Below are positions 20,028 through 27,916 of a DNA stretch of 32,000 nt, one piece after another (within the stretch, counting starts at the first letter, position 1; every line of letters begins with the position of its first letter). Position numbers and translations under genes: made by a program. The stretch spans positions 435,397-467,396 of the forward strand of contig JAWAHN010000002.1 in NCBI GenBank assembly GCA_038889235.1, written 5' to 3'. Origin of the DNA: Candidatus Jordarchaeales archaeon. GTDB lineage: Archaea > Asgardarchaeota > Jordiarchaeia > Jordiarchaeales > Freyrarchaeaceae. The notes under the pieces were generated by a model. That model saw only the letters and a program-made list of their open reading frames with translations, ran no database searches and was not told where the DNA came from.

Positions 20028-20921
20028 TTGGAGTTCAAGGTAGCCCTAGCCCAGATGAGTAGCGCGCGCGGCGACGTCGAGGGAAACCTCGAGAAAATGC
20101 GCCGCTTCGTCGAGGAAGCTGCAGCCTCCGGGGCGGAAATCGTGGTCTTCCCAGAAATGTGCCTCTGCGGCTACACGGTGATGGATGGAAGGGACTTCGA
20201 AACCTTTCACAAGTGCGTCCAGAGCCTCGACAGCCCACCCATTAGGAAGCTCTCCCGCCTCTCCTCGAAAAGCAACATCCACATAGTATTCGGCGCCCCC
20301 ATGGAGGACCCGGCAAGGAAGGGTGTGGTCTACAACAGCGCGGTCCTCCTGGAGCCGGACGGCGGAGTACACGTCTACAACAAGATCCACCTTCCAACCG
20401 GGAGGTACGGGGAGAGCACCTTCTACGAACACATGTACTGCAAGCCTGGAAGCGAGCTGAAGCTCTGCGAAACCAGGCTTGGAAGGATAGGGCTGCAGGT
20501 TTGCCGCGACTACGCCTTCCCGGAGGTCTCAAGGGCCTACTGCTACGCGGGCGTCGACGTTATAGTCAACATATCAGCCGCCCCAGCCACCTCGAAGCGC
20601 TTCTTCGACATAATCCTCCCAGCGAGAGCCCTCGAAAACTCATCCTTCCTAGTATACGTCAACGCCGTTGGAAAGTACGGCGATGTGGAGTTCTTCGGCG
20701 GAAGCAGGATAATAAACCCGCTCGGAGAAACGGTCGTCGAGTGCAAGACAGGGGAGGAAGAACTAGCAGTGGGAACCATAAGCCTCGAACAGCTGAGGGA
20801 GACGAGAACCAGGCTTCCAATACTGAAAGACGTCCAACCACCAGAGTTCTACAACAAGCTCACGAGAAAAATCTTGGATGAAGATTGCCGACAAAAAACG
20901 GGGAAAAAGGGGAGGCCTTAG
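20028..20921 (+). CDS. Carbon-nitrogen hydrolase (nitrilase superfamily)
   Basis: E-K-C triad in FPE, YNKIHL, VCRD. TTG start at 20028 follows AGGTGG. Confidence 0.9.
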
Positions 20922-22558
20922 AACTCACCGCCAGTCTCCGGCAGCTTCCCCGTCTCGCCCTTCTCCTTCTCTTTCTCTTCCTTGTGAGGCTTGCTCGCTA
21001 TAACGTCGTCGATCCTCAGTATCATCGAAGCAGCCTCGCTGGCGCTCTTTATCGCGTGCTTCTTGACTCTCAGAGGCTCCAGCACCCCGAGCTTAAGCAT
21101 GTCGTCCGGCTTGCCCGTCTGAATGTTCAACCCATAAGTCTTCTTGCCCTTGTCATGCTCAGCCCTCAAAGCCACCAGCGCGTCAAGCGGGTCGTGTCCA
21201 CTGTTCTCAGCCAGCGTCTTCGGAACAATCTCCACAGCGTCGGCGAAAGCTTCAATCGCCAGCTGCTCCTTCCCTCCAACGGACTCAGCGTACTTCCTCA
21301 GCTGCCTCGCCACCTCCACCTCGGCCGCGCCGCCACCAGCAACATACTTCTGGTCCTCTATAGCGTTCCTCACAACGCACAGCGCGTCGTTGAGTGCCCT
21401 CTCAGCCTCATCAACCACGTGCTCCGTCCCACCGCGCACCACGATGGTCACAGCCTTCGGGTTCTTGCACTCCCTCACGTAGACAACCTTGTCCTCGCCT
21501 ATCTTAACCTCCTCGACGAGTCCAGCCTCGCCAAGCACGTCCGGCGACAAGTCGTCGAAGCTCGTCACTATCTTAGCTCCCGTGGCCTTCGCGAGCTTCT
21601 CCATGTCACTCTTCTTAACGCGGCGAACCGCAAGAATCCCAGCCTTCGCCAAGAAGTGCTGAGCCAAGTCATCAATACCCTTCTGGCAGAACAGAACATT
21701 GGCACCGCTAGCCTTAACCTTGTCAACCATGCTCTTCAAGATCTTCTGCTCCTCCTCCAAGAACAGCTTCATCTGCGACGGGTCAGTGATCCTGATCTCG
21801 GCGTCAAACTCGGTCTTCTCAACCTCGAGAGGCGCGTCGACAAGCGCAATCTTCGCATCCTTAACCCTCTTAGGCATCGCCGGGTGCACGACCTCCTTAT
21901 CTATCACCATACCCCTGACAAGCTCTGTCTCAAGCAGACTCTTACCCTGCTTCTTCAAAATGTTAACCATGTCCCTGTCAGCCTCGTACTTCCCGTCCTT
22001 CTTCTCCGCAACCTGAAGTATGGCCTCAACAGCCACCCTGGCAAGGTGCTCCCTAGCGCCAGCCACAACCTTACTGTTAAGCGAGGTCATAGCAATCTTA
22101 GTCAAGGTCTCCACATCGTCCGGCTTAACATCCATGGCGATGCCTTCAAGAACCTCGACAGCCTTAGCCGCAGCCTTCTTGAAACCGTTCACAATGACCG
22201 TCGGGTGAATCTTCTGGTCGAGAAGCTCCTCAGCCTTCCTCAAAAGCTCACCAGCAACTATGACCGCGGTGGTCGTCCCATCCCCCACCTCGTCGTCCTG
22301 CGCCTTGGCAACCTCAACCATCATCTTCGCCGCAGGATGCTGCACATCTATCTCGTCAAGTATAGTCGCCCCATCGTTCGTAATTGTGATATCGCCGAGG
22401 CTGTCGACGAGCATCTTGTCCATGCCTCTGGGGCCGAGCGTGGTCCTGATAGCCTCCGCGACAACCCTAGCCGCCATTATGTTGCTGCGCTGCGCATCCC
22501 TACCACGTGTCCTCTCGGTTCCCTCCTTAAGTATCAAGACGGGGACGCCACTAATCAT
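20918..22558 (-). CDS. ths: Thermosome subunit (group II chaperonin)
   Basis: [34 protein letters not shown] motifs. The stop overlaps the convergent nitrilase stop. Confidence 0.97.
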
Positions 22559-22620
22559 CGCCAAGCCAAATCCCTCCTTAGACACTCGTAGAGAAGTCAT
22601 AGATTGGTGAAAATGCACTT

Positions 22621-22637
22621 CTATATAAAGTTAACGC
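22621..22637 (-). promoter_or_regulatory. Thermosome TATA box and upstream element
   Basis: Minus strand reads GCGTTAACTTTATATAG about 65 nt upstream of the ATG. Confidence 0.6.
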
Positions 22638-22857
22638 TAGCCGCAGATCCAACAAACAACACCACGAAAGCCCGCAACACAAACAACCTCTAAAAACAAG
22701 CCACGAAAAACAGTGCACGCGTAGCAAAAGGGCCTGGGAAGGAAGGCAGCCCAACCGGGAGCAGCTCGGGCACGCGGCGTCGAAACAAAGTTCACAGGGA
22801 CAACACCTAAAAAGGAAGCCAACCCTTGGAAGAACACCCGCCCCTTTTATCCCACTT

Positions 22858-23394
22858 TCATCCCTTCCCTCCAACCACCTCCTTTGGAATCTTCACTTCC
22901 AATATCCCATTTCTATAGCTTATCTTAAGCTCATCTGGCTTCACACACGCCGGCAACTTTATACGCTTGTAATACCTGTCCCCAGCCCTCACTTCAAGCT
23001 CATCCCTAGTACAGTTAACGGATATTTCGCTCTCATCAACCCCTGGGACCTCAACCGCAACTATCACTTCACCCTCCCCCTCAATAACATCAACAAGAGG
23101 CTCCCTAACCTCCTTTATCATCGAAGAAGGCTCAGAAGACGGCTGAAAGTTACCAAACTGTCTAACCTCAGGCTTACCATCCGGCCCAATCCTCACACTC
23201 CAACCCCACACTATCGGACCAGTAACTTCAGTTCCATCGGGAAGCCGCACCCTCGGCAACTCCCTCATCAACCTGTCAAACTCAGCGAAAGGCTCCCTGA
23301 AAAACCTCTCAACCATCTCCTCAAACTCCTCAAACCAGCCACCAAAAAAGTCATCAAAAGGCAACCGCCTCTTCCTTCTACGCTCCCAACCCAT
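22858..23394 (-). CDS. hsp20: Archaeal small heat shock protein Hsp20
   Basis: GPIVWGWSVRIGPDGKPEVRQFGN, EPLVDV, EVPGV, YRNGILEV. True start is MGWERR at 23394. Confidence 0.95.
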   Translation of the reverse strand: MGWERRRKRRLPFDDFFGGWFEEFEEMVERFFREPFAEFDRLMRELPRVRLPDGTEVTGPIVWGWSVRIGPDGKPEVRQFGNFQPSSEPSSMIKEVREPLVDVIEGEGEVIVAVEVPGVDESEISVNCTRDELEVRAGDRYYKRIKLPACVKPDELKISYRNGILEVKIPKEVVGGKG

Positions 23395-23439
23395 ACACAC
23401 CACCACAACAAACCCAAGAAATACAAAGCAAAAAACACA

Positions 23440-23453
23440 TTTTAAAGTTACGC
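23440..23453 (-). promoter_or_regulatory. hsp20 TATA box and upstream element
   Basis: Minus strand reads GCGTAACTTTAAAA about 46 nt upstream of the ATG. Confidence 0.55.
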
Positions 23454-23624
23454 CAACACAAACCAAAAACACAACCCACCAAAAACAACAACCCAAAACC
23501 ACAAAACCCAGCAAACCAACCCCAAACCACCCCAACCCCTCCCACTAAAAGAAACAATACAATATCTATTAACAACTATTAACAACAATAAGACACTTTT
23601 TCACCCCCTCCCGCCAAACCCCCA

Positions 23625-24926
23625 CTTTCAACTCTCTCACTAAGATTCATCTTTATGTCGAAGTACTTTCAACTCTCTCGCTGAGATTCCTTGCCCTCCT
23701 TAAGAAGCCTGGCGAACCGCCTCAGCAGCCTCCAGTAAACATATATTACAATTGCAATATAGAGTATCAGGCCAGCCAGCTCCAACCCGCAACCCCCCGC
23801 TATGCTTTCGGCAGCCTTTCAACTCTCTCGCTGAGATTCTGTGCTGTTGGTCACCGTCCTTATGGCTTCGACTGTTTCTTTCAACTCTCTCGCTGAGATT
23901 CTTAAGCCTGTGCAGCCTAGTTGCCGGTAAGCCCATCGACCTTTCAACTCTCTCGCTGAGATTCCACGTATGCTGTCCGCATAGTAAACGATGTGCTCGT
24001 CGGGCACCTTTCAACTCTCTCGCTGAGATTCAGCCAAGCATATAGAGGCGGGAGAAGCGAAAGCTTCGTAAGCTTTCAACTCTCTCGCTGAGATTCAGAA
24101 CGACATAGTGCCAGCGCTCGACGGTGTGTTTAACCTCTTTCAACTCTCTCGCTGAGATTCGTGGCCCCAAAAGGCGCCATAGTCGTTCTCAGGTACGAGA
24201 CCTTTCAACTCTCTCGCTGAGATTCTGATCCACTCGACCTCGAACTCCGCTCTAACGCCCTTGAACTTTCAACTCTCTCGCTGAGATTCACGAAGACGAC
24301 TGCAAAAATAAGGGTTGCCGCGAGCACCTTTCAACTCTCTCGCTGAGATTCGACAGCATACCCCATATATGCAACGACCACTAGAGAACTTTCATCTCTC
24401 TCGCTGAGATTCTTATTTTATTAGTTTTTGTTGGTGGTGTTTATGAGTCTTTCAACTCTCTCGCTGAGATTCGAATCAGTGGAGCTAAGAACAAGTGCGT
24501 TCAACCCCCAACCTTTCAACTCTCTCGCTGAGATTCTCTCCAACCACTCCTTTTCTCCACATTATGTATATTATGTCTTTCAACTCTCTCGCTGAGATTC
24601 TGGAAAAAGAGGGGGTTGTCGAGTACAGGGAGGCGCAGAGGAGGATTCTTTCAACTCTCTCGCTGAGATTCTTGTTTTACCGCATCTATGTTCCAACGCA
24701 CACCAGCGTGCTTTCAACTCTCTCGCTGAGATTCTTAACAGCTGGCAAGCGTATGTTAACGGCTGGATCAGCAGCTCTTTCAACTCTCTCGCTGAGATTC
24801 TCACCTCGAACACGAAATCATAATGCGAACATCTATATTCTTTCAACTCTCTCGCTGAGATTCGCAGTATTTTGCAGAGAGAGCAGTTCCTGTTGTTGAT
24901 CACTTTCAACTCTCTCGCTGAGATTC
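23625..24926 (-). CRISPR. CRISPR array: 20 repeats (24 nt, GAATCTCAGCGAGAGAGTTGAAAG) and 19 spacers
   Basis: Repeats start (plus strand) at 23625 (degenerate), 23666, 23816, 23878, 23941, 24008, 24073, 24137, 24202, 24266, 24328, 24389 (1 SNP), 24449, 24513, 24577, 24648, 24711, 24777, 24840, 24903. Spacers are 36-47 nt except one of 17 nt and one of 126 nt. The 3' GAAAG and the degenerate left repeat give the minus orientation. Confidence 0.99.
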
Positions 24927-25077
24927 CGAGGTATTTTTTTGTCTTTTTTGCTTTTTTTGTTTTTCTCTTTTTTGTTTTGTGGGGGGTTGTTTCGGCGGTG
25001 GTTGTTTTGTTTTTGGGTTGTTGTTTTTCGCCGAAGTGTGGGTTTGTGTTGTGGGGGTGTTTTGGTTTTTTTGTGTT
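24927..25077 (-). promoter_or_regulatory. CRISPR leader region
   Basis: Non-coding 151 bp between the cas4 stop and the first intact repeat; low complexity. Confidence 0.7.
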
Positions 25078-25671
25078 TTATGGGTGGCATATTTTTTTGT
25101 AGCCGCAGTTGTGGCATTTTGTTGTTTGTTTTATTGGTGGTAGTTTTTCTTTTTCGATTATTTCTTTTATTTTGTTTATTGTCCATTTTACGTGTTTTCT
25201 TATTTGTTCTGTTAGGGGGATTTCGATTGATTTTTTGTCTTTGAGGTAGTTTATTTTTATTTTTTTGATTGGTTTTCCTAGTTTTTCTTCTGCTAGCATG
25301 GCGTATGCTGCTGCTTGGTATATGTGTGCGGGGTATGGTTTTCTGGGTGCTTTTGTGTACTTGTTTTCTATTAGGGTTAGTCCGTGTTGTGTTTCTGCTA
25401 TTTCGTCTATGATTCCGTATATGCCTAGTTTTTTTGATGTTGCGGGGAGTTTGCTCCAGTGTTTTGTGACTGGTTCTTTTCTTTCTCCGCTGAGTGTGGT
25501 TCTGCGTTGTGCTTTTTTGTCTTCTTTTGTGTGGTGTTCTTTTCCTTCTTTCATTGTTTCTGTTGGTTTTTCTTTGTAGCCTAGGACTGCTATGTGGTAG
25601 ATTATTCTTGGGCAGAAGTGGTATTGTTTTATCCAGGTGACTGGGATTAGGTTTTCTTCGTCTTCTGACAT
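25078..25671 (-). CDS. cas4: CRISPR-associated exonuclease Cas4
   Basis: FCPR, GIIDEI, ENK, QAAAY, C-terminal CxxCxYxxxC. Confidence 0.95.
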   Translation of the reverse strand: MSEDEENLIPVTWIKQYHFCPRIIYHIAVLGYKEKPTETMKEGKEHHTKEDKKAQRRTTLSGERKEPVTKHWSKLPATSKKLGIYGIIDEIAETQHGLTLIENKYTKAPRKPYPAHIYQAAAYAMLAEEKLGKPIKKIKINYLKDKKSIEIPLTEQIRKHVKWTINKIKEIIEKEKLPPIKQTTKCHNCGYKKICHP

Positions 25672-25678
25672 GTTCTCT

Positions 25679-25966
25679 TTAGACGATGAGTTCTTCTTTG
25701 GCGTATTCTTCGAATGGTTTTCCTATTATTTCTCTTTGTGCCATGTCTGCTCTGCATATTGTGAAGATTTGTATGTTTCCGTCCGTGTTTTTCATTATTT
25801 TTCTGAGGGCTGCGGATAGTTCTTTTCTTCTTGAGCTTGTGAGTTTGCCGAGGAATGTGCTTCTCTGTATTCTTGCCAGCCCGAAGGCTTTGCAGGTTTC
25901 GCTTACTTTGAGCCTTGTGTTGTCGTCGCTTATGTCGTAGACTACTAGTGTGTCCAAATTTTTCAC
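25679..25966 (-). CDS. cas2: CRISPR-associated endonuclease Cas2
   Basis: VVYDISDD, RIQRSTF; 95 aa; GTGA overlap with cas1. Confidence 0.95.
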   Translation of the reverse strand: MKNLDTLVVYDISDDNTRLKVSETCKAFGLARIQRSTFLGKLTSSRRKELSAALRKIMKNTDGNIQIFTICRADMAQREIIGKPFEEYAKEELIV

Positions 25967-26970
25967 CTCATTGTGAAGGGCTTGTAGTCTTGGGTTCTGG
26001 AGAGGAGGTAGTCTGCGATTCTCCTCGCCTGGAGGAATATGTGGCTGTGGAAGGGGAGGCGCCTGCCTAGGAAAGACACTTGCTCTGACAGTCTTTCGGA
26101 TACTGCTTTGACTGCTGCGAACCTCGCCTCTCTTTTAAGTCTCCCGTTTTCGACTGTTGAGTGCAGGTTTTTCATGCTCCACGCGAGTCTTAGCACCGCT
26201 CTGTCTACGACCGGCTGCCTGAACTCTTCCATGGCGTCCATTACGAGTGCCGGCCTTCTGGGTGAGTCTACGTGTAGGAACCCTGCGTAGGCGTCGAGGC
26301 CGGCTGACTCGACGGCGAGCCACACTTCCATGGAGAGCAGGGAGTAGCAGAAGTTGAGCATTATGTTGATGGGGTCGTCGGGCATCTCGAACCTCTTCCT
26401 CCTCCCCGGGAACCCTGCATCCTCTGGCAGTATGAGCTTGAAGCCCTCCCAGTATATCTTGGCGGCTTCAGCCTCCAGCTTCATTATCTCGCTTCTGACG
26501 TCGTCGACGCAGCTTCCCTCCAGGCTTAGGATTTCCTCCGCTATTTTCGCCTCCTCCTTGGAGAGCTCGATTAGTGTCGTTGAGAGGCGTGGCCTGTTTT
26601 TTCCCGCCTCCCTCAGGAGGGCTTTCTGGTTGACGACCTTGGCCCACGAGAACCTTTTTGCCAGGTAGGCTCCGCTCGGCTTGCCCTGGGCGCTGTACTG
26701 GGCTTTTCGCAGCGCGACCGTGCCTTTCCCCGTGAAGCTTGAGAGCTTGGCTTCAGGGTATCCGCCGGAGTAAAACACGATGTCCACGTTGTGCCTTGCG
26801 AGGAGGGTTACGACCGCTGAGGACATTGACGCGCCGCGCGTCAACACTACTACTTGCCCTATGTTTGAAGGGGAGACTTCTAGTATTTTCTCGCCCCTTT
26901 TCTTGACAACCACCATTCCCTTCCTAGCTGACAGGAATGTTCCCGGCTCGTTTATCACGAGTCTTTTCAA
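25963..26970 (-). CDS. cas1: CRISPR-associated endonuclease Cas1
   Basis: LEAEAAKIYW, DPINIMLNFCY, GFLH, DAMEEFR catalytic motifs. Confidence 0.97.
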   Translation of the reverse strand: MKRLVINEPGTFLSARKGMVVVKKRGEKILEVSPSNIGQVVVLTRGASMSSAVVTLLARHNVDIVFYSGGYPEAKLSSFTGKGTVALRKAQYSAQGKPSGAYLAKRFSWAKVVNQKALLREAGKNRPRLSTTLIELSKEEAKIAEEILSLEGSCVDDVRSEIMKLEAEAAKIYWEGFKLILPEDAGFPGRRKRFEMPDDPINIMLNFCYSLLSMEVWLAVESAGLDAYAGFLHVDSPRRPALVMDAMEEFRQPVVDRAVLRLAWSMKNLHSTVENGRLKREARFAAVKAVSERLSEQVSFLGRRLPFHSHIFLQARRIADYLLSRTQDYKPFTMR

Positions 26971-27916
26971 CGCTCCCCCCTCTGCAGACTGGGTGGTACG
27001 GGCAGTAGCTTGGGCAGTTGAGTGGCTTTCCCGGGTCCCTTGAGGCGGAGACCACTTCGTGGGCTTCGTCCCTTATTTCTATGAACTCCCGTCTCAGCTC
27101 GTCTCCTATCACGAAGCACTTGACCTTGAAGCTTGGGACGGGGCCCGGGAACTTCACGTACACGATGAAGCCGTAGTCGACTGGGACTCCCTCCTCGGCT
27201 TCTAGTGCTAGGGCGTAGCCTGCGAGCGCGTAGGGGTGGAACTCCCTTTCCTCTCCGGTTTTAAGGTCTGCTACGGCGTTGAAAGGGGTGTACACGTCCA
27301 CGCTGAGCTCCCTGCTTAGACCTATGAGGCTTCCGTCGATCTTTCTCTCTGCAATGGGTGGCACCGTTATGCTCACCAGTGAGTCGACGTCCGAGTTTGG
27401 GTGCTTCGAGAGGGCTTGGTCCAATCTCGCCGCAGCCTGCACTGCAAGGAACTTGCAGAAGGCTAGGGCTTCGTCCTTCAGTTTTGCTTTAACTTCTCCG
27501 CTAACCTCTGAGAACATGTGATCCGCGTAGAGCAGTGCTTTCTCAACTAGGACGGCTGCTAGGGGGGCGACGGCTTCTATGAGCTCGAAGCCGCACTGGA
27601 CGTCGCCTGAAAACAGGAGTTTTTTAATGGTGAGCAGCATCTCTCGGTTGACGTTGTGGAGCACCACTCCTCTGGCGGTTTTGGCGCTTGCAGGGGCTTT
27701 TACTCCTAGAACCCTTTTGAGGTATATGTCGCGCATTGAAGCGCAGTAGCGTCCTGCAAGCTCGCTTACGCTGAAGAGGAGTGATCTGGATGGGGGTTCG
27801 ACGGGTGGGGAGTCGAAGGACCACCCTCTAAGCTCCTCGCTGACCCCCTTGAACCCGAGCTCGCGGCGTAGGAGTCTCAGGCGCCTGTCTAGCTCGAGCT
27901 TGTCGAGGAAAAGCAT
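26924..27916 (-). CDS. csa1: Type I-A Cas4-like protein Csa1
   Basis: EELRGW..PPV.P, SELAGRYC..RD, DLKTG, LAGYALALE, C-terminal CPSYCPYHPVC. Confidence 0.9.
   Translation of the reverse strand: MLFLDKLELDRRLRLLRRELGFKGVSEELRGWSFDSPPVEPPSRSLLFSVSELAGRYCASMRDIYLKRVLGVKAPASAKTARGVVLHNVNREMLLTIKKLLFSGDVQCGFELIEAVAPLAAVLVEKALLYADHMFSEVSGEVKAKLKDEALAFCKFLAVQAAARLDQALSKHPNSDVDSLVSITVPPIAERKIDGSLIGLSRELSVDVYTPFNAVADLKTGEEREFHPYALAGYALALEAEEGVPVDYGFIVYVKFPGPVPSFKVKCFVIGDELRREFIEIRDEAHEVVSASRDPGKPLNCPSYCPYHPVCRGGSVEKTRDKRAGNIPVS

Follow-up and report, generated by a model that had tools for sequence, protein, structure and literature searches.

Kilobase-sized, mirror-image strand skew around a CRISPR array and rRNA genes in a Jordarchaeales archaeon

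Introduction

Strand-asymmetric mutation as such is well known, and several described systems resemble the pattern treated here: an extreme flip in strand composition centred on a type I-A CRISPR array in a 32,000-nt stretch of contig JAWAHN010000002.1 (positions 435,397 to 467,396) of the Candidatus Jordarchaeales archaeon assembly GCA_038889235.1. This whole stretch is called the window (G000:C2:435397-467396, G000 being the genome analysed and C1, C2, C3 and C4 its contigs), and coordinates refer to it unless a contig is named. Composition is expressed as keto skew, (G+T-A-C)/n, on the plus strand unless stated. For protein genes, k3 is the keto skew of third codon positions on the sense strand and k1 and k2 are those of first and second positions, with 1914 called genes ranked; outward-strand skew is the skew expressed on the strand running away from a locus.

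Polak and Arndt reportedly described, in 2008, a transcription-associated mutational strand asymmetry around vertebrate transcription start sites. For E. coli, the portion of PMC12999951 that cites Beletskii & Bhagwat 1996 gives C>T changes on the non-transcribed strand. The Jordarchaeales pattern shares with such asymmetry a surplus of C>T and A>G changes on the non-template strand, the decay over 1-2 kb, the mirror image upstream of strong promoters and perhaps a greater strength at highly transcribed loci. It is, however, far larger, with skew reaching 0.7-0.9 and 95% of third positions on one side, it prevails over codon usage and amino-acid composition, and it also hits genes that point towards the hotspot. 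In contrast to the vertebrate case, moreover, the host is an archaeon, in which divergent transcription is only assumed.

Vertebrate mitochondrial DNA (mtDNA) replicates by strand displacement with transcript-primed synthesis, has a D-loop of ~0.6 kb and shows a compositional gradient that follows the presumed time spent single-stranded. Its A/C-rich and G/T-rich strands, its predominance of A/C-ending codons and its gradient away from a start point are all found again here, although as local, mirror-image patches of ~1 kb at many chromosomal sites rather than over a whole replicon, and with displacement synthesis that is putative. R-loop-prone sequences offer another parallel: immunoglobulin switch regions are R-loop-prone and GC-skewed, and Ginno et al. 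are said to have reported, in 2012/2013, R-loop-prone, GC-skewed CpG-island promoters and terminators. A G-rich non-template strand past strong promoters and at 3' ends, a flip at bidirectional promoters and a kilobase scale are common to both, whereas in the present, prokaryotic case a T>A skew joins the G>C skew (a keto skew and not a pure GC skew) and R-loops are conjectural. The replication skew of bacteria and some archaea likewise follows the physical strand regardless of gene orientation, and a weak version of it (0.05-0.1 over hundreds of kb) is present in this genome; the local flips are about ten times stronger, are kilobase-sized and recur in many places, whatever the regional background. 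Literature searches did not find a prior description of such skew. What appears to be new is a keto skew of kilobase size, mirror-imaged and close to saturation, around the CRISPR arrays and rRNA genes of an archaeal lineage.

Results

Strand composition flips at the array

The array (23625-24926, corrected coordinates; 20 repeats of 24 nt) is flanked by hsp20 (22858-23394, ATG at 23394, Pfam PF00011) on its left and by its leader (24927-25077) and cas4 (25078-25671, Pfam PF01930) on its right, and csa1, cas1, cas2, cas4, the leader, the array, hsp20 and the thermosome gene all lie on the minus strand in one direction. Binned at 200 nt, the skew reaches -0.70 on the left of the array (23401-23600) and +0.69 on its right (25001-25200), so that on both sides the G/T-rich strand runs 5' to 3' away from the array, as had been claimed in a previous, sequence-only reading of the window. 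The nucleotide counts given there were all exact (59 of 60 nt A/C at 23461-23520 and 56 of 60 nt G/T at 24961-25020). The trailer-side flank (23395-23624) is 86% A/C on the plus strand (A.48, C.38, G.03, T.11) and the leader 91% G/T (A.03, C.07, G.32, T.59). The skew drops to about +/-0.1-0.15 over ~1 kb and then holds for 5-7 kb. Across the genome, 0.01% of 300-nt intervals lie at or below -0.6 and 0.14% at or above +0.6, and in a genome-wide ranking of skew segments the right array flank is 6th and the left flank 14th.

The same bias dominates the neighbouring genes. In cas4, 190 of 197 codons end in A or C (the exceptions being ATG three times, TGG three times and AAG), giving a k3 of -0.93, the second lowest of all genes. 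With k1 at -0.31 and k2 at -0.33, against genome means of +0.06 and +0.02 (SD ~0.095), the other codon positions are almost four SD off, and 42% of the codons consist of A and C only, compared with a median of 11% and a 99th percentile of 23% across the genome; because first and second positions are shifted and so many codons are pure A/C, the bias reaches the protein. The adjoining cas2 (25679-25966, minus strand, Pfam PF09827) has a k3 of -0.79, the eighth lowest, with 89% of its codons ending in A/C and a share that increases towards the array (0.83, 0.88, 0.92 and 0.96 by quarter from 5' to 3'). In the fading outer part of the right skew domain, A/C-ending codons make up 65% of cas1 (25963-26970, minus strand, Pfam PF01867) and 69% of csa1 (26924-27916, minus strand, Pfam PF06023).

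On the other side, hsp20 is G/T-rich on its sense strand, with a k3 of about +0.61 to +0.64 (fifth highest). Its G/T-ending codons per block of 30, from 5' to 3', number 27, 24, 27, 25 and 21, followed by 19 of the last 29, and the bias thus weakens with distance from the array. Farther out, the intergenic region between hsp20 and the thermosome gene (22619-22857) is A/C-rich on the plus strand (-0.30 in the 22601-22800 bin), and the thermosome gene itself (Cpn60/TCP-1; 20918-22618, minus strand, Pfam PF00118, E 2e-200), in the weaker outer part of the left skew domain, has a k3 of +0.39 (rank 1888 of 1914). Since cas4 and hsp20 are both on the minus strand and yet occupy opposite k3 extremes, the flip overrides gene orientation and codon usage, and the codon counts from which this had been proposed were likewise exact (59 of the last 60 sense codons of cas4 ending in A/C, the other being TGG, and 16 of the first 18 of hsp20 ending in G/T). 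The spacers of the array are unskewed (mean 0.00), and no age gradient of skew along the spacers was seen in any of five arrays. The array body hides the mutational pressure, as repeats are under selection and spacers turn over.

Decayed repeats give the direction of mutation

Just past the last intact repeat of three arrays, at the right spacing of one spacer length, lie decayed repeat units that retain 32-34 of 36 purine/pyrimidine positions of the repeat pattern. At least one such unit is present within the trailer flank of the array in the window, at ~23590-23624, and differs from the consensus mostly by A>G and C>T on the sense strand. Compared with the consensus of their own arrays, the decayed repeats carry 21 A>G, nine C>T, one G>A and no T>C changes on the sense strand, together with three transversions. 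Of the 34 changes, 30 are thus A>G or C>T when read on the sense strand, the one that runs outward on the trailer side. The resulting ratio of forward to reverse changes of ~30 to 1 is near the 27 to 1 that follows from the k3 of cas4 at equilibrium. The cause of the skew is therefore mutational, a strong strand-asymmetric transition pressure of C>T and A>G on the outward 5' to 3' strand, and this pressure radiates ~1 kb outward from both array ends. The sequence-only reading had suspected a bias of this kind, which the decayed repeats polarise directly.

Comparison among homologues points to position as the determinant. The hsp20 orthologues of relatives have k3 values of -0.50 to +0.13; at 65-70% amino acid identity their synonymous sites are saturated, and the comparison is one of composition only. 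Two cas1 paralogues in the genome differ in the same manner, with a k3 of -0.30 in the one that points towards an array and +0.59 in the one on contig C4 that points away from the flank at the contig start, which probably adjoins an array. As both the hsp20 orthologues and the cas1 paralogues differ in k3, the bias is set by position and not by the protein. The comparison with orthologues suggested earlier could accordingly be carried through at the level of composition, where it brought out the context-dependent skew of hsp20, and not in non-coding sequence: the 16S flanks of this genome and of the relatives G003 and G004 are only 35-49% identical and unalignable, so that their substitutions are not polarisable against relatives.

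The array is one of many hotspots

Of the 15 strongest skew segments genome-wide, eight are found no more than 200 nt from an rRNA gene or a CRISPR array, and flanks as strong as those described above occur at four of five arrays and at the 16S and 23S rRNA genes. Over the ten flanks considered (five arrays, 16S and 23S) the outward-strand skew averages 0.49 over the nearest 250 nt and fades with a decay length of ~1.1 kb. The upstream side of 23S, at only 0.10, and the trailer side of the array on C3, at 0.0, are exceptions. At EF-1alpha, the signal recognition particle (SRP) RNA and most tRNAs the polarity is unchanged but the amplitude lower. EF-1alpha, with a k3 of +0.43, switches sign at its promoter, from -0.36 upstream to +0.37 downstream, and its entire translated body is G/T-rich on the sense strand, while ribosomal protein genes reach only +0.14. 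Average intergenic gaps flip from minus to plus as well, by only 0.03-0.12 against 0.5-0.7 here, so the equal flips at all AT-rich gaps that would have refuted the sequence-only reading were not found. Close pairs of segments with the reverse polarity (plus, then minus) were not seen in a genome-wide scan. At the level of genes, 5' ends are on average G/T-rich on the sense strand (k3 +0.125 in the first 25 codons), and 3' ends carry a stronger skew opposite a convergent gene than ahead of a downstream promoter. The protein genes at hotspots without an RNA gene encode large proteins without Pfam match, a TFB, a gelsolin-like protein and a methyltransferase, and no Pfam family common to them was found. 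The array is one of the strongest hotspots of a lineage-wide process and not its cause, in keeping with the earlier suggestion of a genome-wide process with the array as a hotspot.

Some hotspots have surroundings of their own. On C3, a four-gene cassette (G000:C3:463308-466262, L011:3309-6263) lies between the 49-repeat array and a skewed stretch 3 kb off. It encodes a truncated family-B DNA polymerase, an XPF/ERCC4-HhH nuclease, a small open reading frame (ORF) and an MCM-like AAA ATPase, is itself unskewed and may be a recent insertion or mobile element. Upstream of EF-1alpha lie 1.5 kb without a called gene (G000:C1:849930-851463), in which A/C-richness grows from -0.14 to -0.36 towards the promoter. 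Ahead of 16S, just upstream of a TATA-like box, is an uncalled plus-strand ORF with A/C-ending codons and a basic, rps26e-like product (G000:C2:19736-20016). The 5' and 3' flanks of 16S (20190-20258 and 21757-21795 on G000:C2) are complementary, apart from a bulge, over ~35 nt and resemble a processing stem. Upstream of an orc1/cdc6 gene, an AT-rich gap (G000:C1:942825-943253, GC 0.28-0.31) with many GTTAAC palindromes is a candidate origin, and near it the chromosome-scale skew switches from plus to minus, opposite to the local flip from minus to plus.

Relatives and other archaea

Within the same family, G004 shows a 3-kb gradient reaching -0.9 at a leader and G003 a skew of +0.8 declining to +0.3 at a leader, and the 16S flanks of both are skewed too. 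In Odinarchaeum the skew is +/-0.3-0.4 at the type I-A array and nothing is seen at 16S, and two other Asgard genomes (G013 and G024) have at most a weak skew (about -0.2) beside arrays. Among 80 thermosome genes of other archaea, including hyperthermophiles, none reaches the +0.39 found here, the maximum being +0.21. Loss of deamination or mismatch repair was ruled out as a simple explanation, as the EndoV, UDG and NucS families are all present in the genome.

Discussion

Possible transcription-linked exposure of the outward strand

The explanation that we tentatively favour, while giving it somewhat less than an even chance, is a single-strand exposure of the outward-running strand that is tied to heavy transcription. 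RNA polymerases leaving heavily transcribed loci would repeatedly leave the outward-running strand single-stranded. On the trailer side this could occur by read-through of the CRISPR precursor transcript (pre-crRNA), possibly with R-loops since the non-template strand there is G-rich, and on the leader side by divergent or antisense transcription. At hot-spring temperature, deamination would remove C and A from the exposed strand more quickly than repair puts them back. Wherever this process prevails, third codon positions would come near to mutational equilibrium (forward to reverse ~27 to 1) and first and second positions would drift as well.

This explanation is favoured because the hotspots are presumably the most heavily transcribed loci, because the sign switch of EF-1alpha sits at its promoter with a G/T-rich gene body behind it, and because gene 5' ends are G/T-rich on average. 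The stronger skew of 3' ends facing convergent genes is what read-through predicts, and antisense CRISPR transcripts, documented in Sulfolobales (PMC4390879), lend plausibility to the leader side. The k3 of the thermosome gene, the conservation of the pattern at CRISPR and 16S flanks in G003 and G004 (weaker in Odinarchaeum) and the independence of the local flips from the regional, replication-type skew were also counted as support. On the trailer side, the non-template excess of C>T and A>G is polarised against the ancestral repeat.

Several observations nevertheless weigh against a link to transcription. Outward transcription at the leader is an assumption, one metatranscriptome having yielded no more than three short pieces that match poorly. 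In genes directed towards a hotspot, namely cas4, cas2 and the rps26e-like ORF that precedes the likely 16S promoter, the sense strand is A/C-rich, so antisense exposure would have to outweigh their own transcription; in these genes the enriched strand does not follow the direction of transcription, as it does in transcription-associated asymmetry, unless antisense transcription dominates. T runs act as archaeal terminators, and five runs of at least five T lie within a ~50-nt part of the leader on the outward strand (24930-24975, plus strand), but past them the skew is undiminished in cas4. In the decayed repeats the per-site frequency of A>G equals that of C>T, whereas simple hydrolytic deamination has a strong preference for C. 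The skew at CRISPR flanks is no weaker than at rRNA flanks, where more transcription would be expected. Finally, since the thermosome genes of other archaea, hyperthermophiles included, are without such skew, heat alone is insufficient, and with EndoV, UDG and NucS present the lineage specificity does not come from a simple loss of repair.

Possible outward DNA synthesis

The polarity fits any process that displaces or newly makes the outward-running strand. Perhaps it is DNA synthesis and not transcription itself that proceeds outward, an alternative that we regard as doubtful yet as a close second, favoured by the A/C-rich genes that point towards hotspots, the T runs of the leader, the per-site frequency of A>G and the strength of the array flanks relative to those of rRNA. 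Here R-loops or breaks at heavily transcribed and largely untranslated loci would prime ~1 kb of strand-displacement or fill-in synthesis in both directions, and either the displaced outward strand would deaminate or the nascent outward strand would gather G.T mispairs (yielding A>G and C>T). The process can be likened to the mitochondrial D-loop, to R-loop-primed stable DNA replication or to the repair of resected ends. It would account for a polarity that is symmetric and independent of gene orientation on both sides and for an effect that T-run terminators do not halt, and the similar per-site frequencies of A>G and C>T are those expected from G.T mispairs or long exposure of single-stranded DNA (ssDNA). 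The 1-kb scale suits D-loop or resection tracts, and the A/C versus G/T signature is that of vertebrate mtDNA. Untranslated RNAs make up the strongest hotspots, and the cdc6-adjacent AT-rich region with GTTAAC palindromes flips with the same polarity, if more weakly (-0.3 to +0.37). The switch of EF-1alpha at its promoter and its G/T-rich translated body suit a process centred on transcription better, however, and most hotspots are without a long-range, fork-like effect past a few kb. Outward synthesis is argued by analogy, and we know of no archaeal precedent for it.

Unlikely alternatives: selection, replication origin and CRISPR-specific repair

Selection for composition is improbable. Under it, the flanks would be maintained as T-run terminator zones, as unstructured A/C-only leaders or as pairing flanks like those of the pre-16S stem. 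The 16S flanks do pair and the outward strands are rich in T runs, but the skew extends 1 kb into unrelated protein genes, where it distorts codons and amino acids, and decayed, functionless repeats show the same directional changes. Inverted-repeat matches between the flanks are of low complexity and occur in many registers, and a genuine inverted repeat between the array flanks was rejected on these grounds.

Slightly more improbable still is an array sitting on a chromosomal replication origin, with the flip as ordinary leading- and lagging-strand skew. The cumulative keto skew of contig C2 does have its minimum at 450-460 kb, exactly at the array, and third-position skew tracks the physical strand across hundreds of kb. 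Both orc1/cdc6 genes, however, are on another contig (the only two Cdc6_C matches being at C1:~702 kb and C1:~944 kb), and 10 kb to the right of the array the skew has returned to about zero. On the scale of the chromosome the amplitude is no more than 0.05-0.1, compared with 0.7 at the array, the same flip occurs at a dozen other sites, and the local flips add to the regional background without depending on it.

An origin specific to CRISPR, as had been proposed in the sequence-only reading with repair after spacer integration among its examples, is very unlikely and largely refuted by the rRNA flanks. Such a scar could stem from post-integration gap repair at the leader, from Cas3 unwinding or from Cascade binding its own array. 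Array flanks are indeed the most extreme class, with an outward skew of 0.48-0.73 in the first 250 nt at five of six array flanks, and the arrays are active, their spacer content differing between samples from two metagenomes. Yet the 16S and 23S flanks are of equal amplitude, and those of EF-1alpha, tRNAs and SRP RNA have the same polarity at lower amplitude. Trailer flanks lie past arrays of 17-50 repeats, well away from the integration site, and their skew equals that of leader flanks; one array flank, adjoining the array on C3, is unskewed.

Least likely of all is an assembly or binning artefact, or foreign DNA that was already skewed on arrival: several hotspots are at contig ends and the type I-A module looks horizontally acquired, with a cas1 closest to that of Odinarchaeum, but contigs of a second study bear the same flanks, the ORFs are intact with Pfam matches, the skew flips at the array and tracks position rather than gene origin, and rRNA and EF-1alpha flanks cannot be foreign cassettes. 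The contigs concerned come from runs X1 (2022) and X2 (2024) of different studies and span 22607-24435/24473 and 24810/24903-29000, with no differences from the window in X1 and two (left contig) and six (right contig) in X2. The best-matching DNA run may be the source sample, while the second study is independent; because its contigs bear the same flanks, the skew is not an artefact of assembly, a doubt that had been raised from the outset.

Among other mechanisms considered, classical 5' to 3' resection with deamination of the 3' tail was rejected, as it predicts the opposite polarity. Fork stalling on the arrival side was rejected as well, left and right flank skew being equal after background subtraction in regions of either sign.

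Organisation and history of the CRISPR locus

The locus is of type I-A, with cas1, cas2, cas4 and csa1 adjoining the array and the interference gene csa2/cas7 (PF01905) nearby. On the minus strand the 24-nt repeat reads GAATC...GTTGAAAG, and its transcribed form ends in GTTGAAAG. The terminal repeat at the left end of the array (23625-23648) is degenerate, with two C>T changes on the sense strand, which places the leader at the right, beside cas4. The arrangement is thus that of a type I-A array, with the leader on the cas side and the degenerate terminal repeat at the opposite end. An AAATACC junction motif beside the first repeat is common to this leader and that of the relative G004. The trailer end is irregular, a 17-nt spacer (23649-23665) being followed by a 126-nt "spacer" (23690-23815) with otherwise normal repeats around them, and this spacing could reflect a lost repeat or an insertion.

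Some spacers stand out. The spacer at 24413-24448 differs from its neighbours in being 86% G/T on the plus strand (skew +0.72); the other arrays contain a few spacers that are just as extreme, and a source for it was not found in the genome. The leader-proximal spacer at 24864-24902 has an exact 18-mer in common with a spacer at G000:C2:2618-2635, in an array of another repeat type at the start of C2, and both CRISPR systems may have sampled the same invader. At 24449-24473 another spacer is present in a contig of run X2, which belongs to a different study, and the junction of that contig with the array differs too. No self-targeting spacers were found, the best matches to the own genome being 13-18 nt.

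The cas1 of the locus is nearest to that of Odinarchaeum LCB_4 (50% identity, compared with 38-43% for relatives of the same genus) and the repeats are Odin-like as well, so the type I-A module looks to have been transferred horizontally between Asgard lineages. Beyond hsp20, a 568-aa open frame on the plus strand (20885-22591) runs antisense across the whole thermosome gene, a shadow ORF that could fool a naive gene caller.

Implications

It is conceivable, if on balance rather doubtful, that the heavily transcribed loci of Jordarchaeales, and to a lesser degree those of Odinarchaeum, are autonomous sources from which kilobase-long ssDNA arises in both directions, either through eukaryote-like divergent promoter transcription with stable R-loops or through D-loop-like, transcript-primed, abortive DNA synthesis. 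If so, this would to our knowledge be the strongest local mutational strand asymmetry in a cellular chromosome. The neighbouring cas4, cas2 and hsp20 would have been rewritten by it, and CRISPR and rRNA flanks would be hypermutable zones.

For work on these genomes, genes beside arrays and rRNA genes are under an extreme compositional drift that distorts inferences from codon usage, on horizontal transfer and in phylogeny and that weakens homology searches, and origin prediction based on skew is misled. Decayed array ends, on the other hand, become recognisable and datable from their transition pattern. Were heavily transcribed loci indeed such sources of ssDNA, an uncultured Asgard lineage would hold a record, at kilobase resolution, of habitual strand exposure, and archaeal R-loops, divergent transcription and origin-independent DNA synthesis, all three with eukaryotic parallels, would become testable from sequence and metatranscriptomes.

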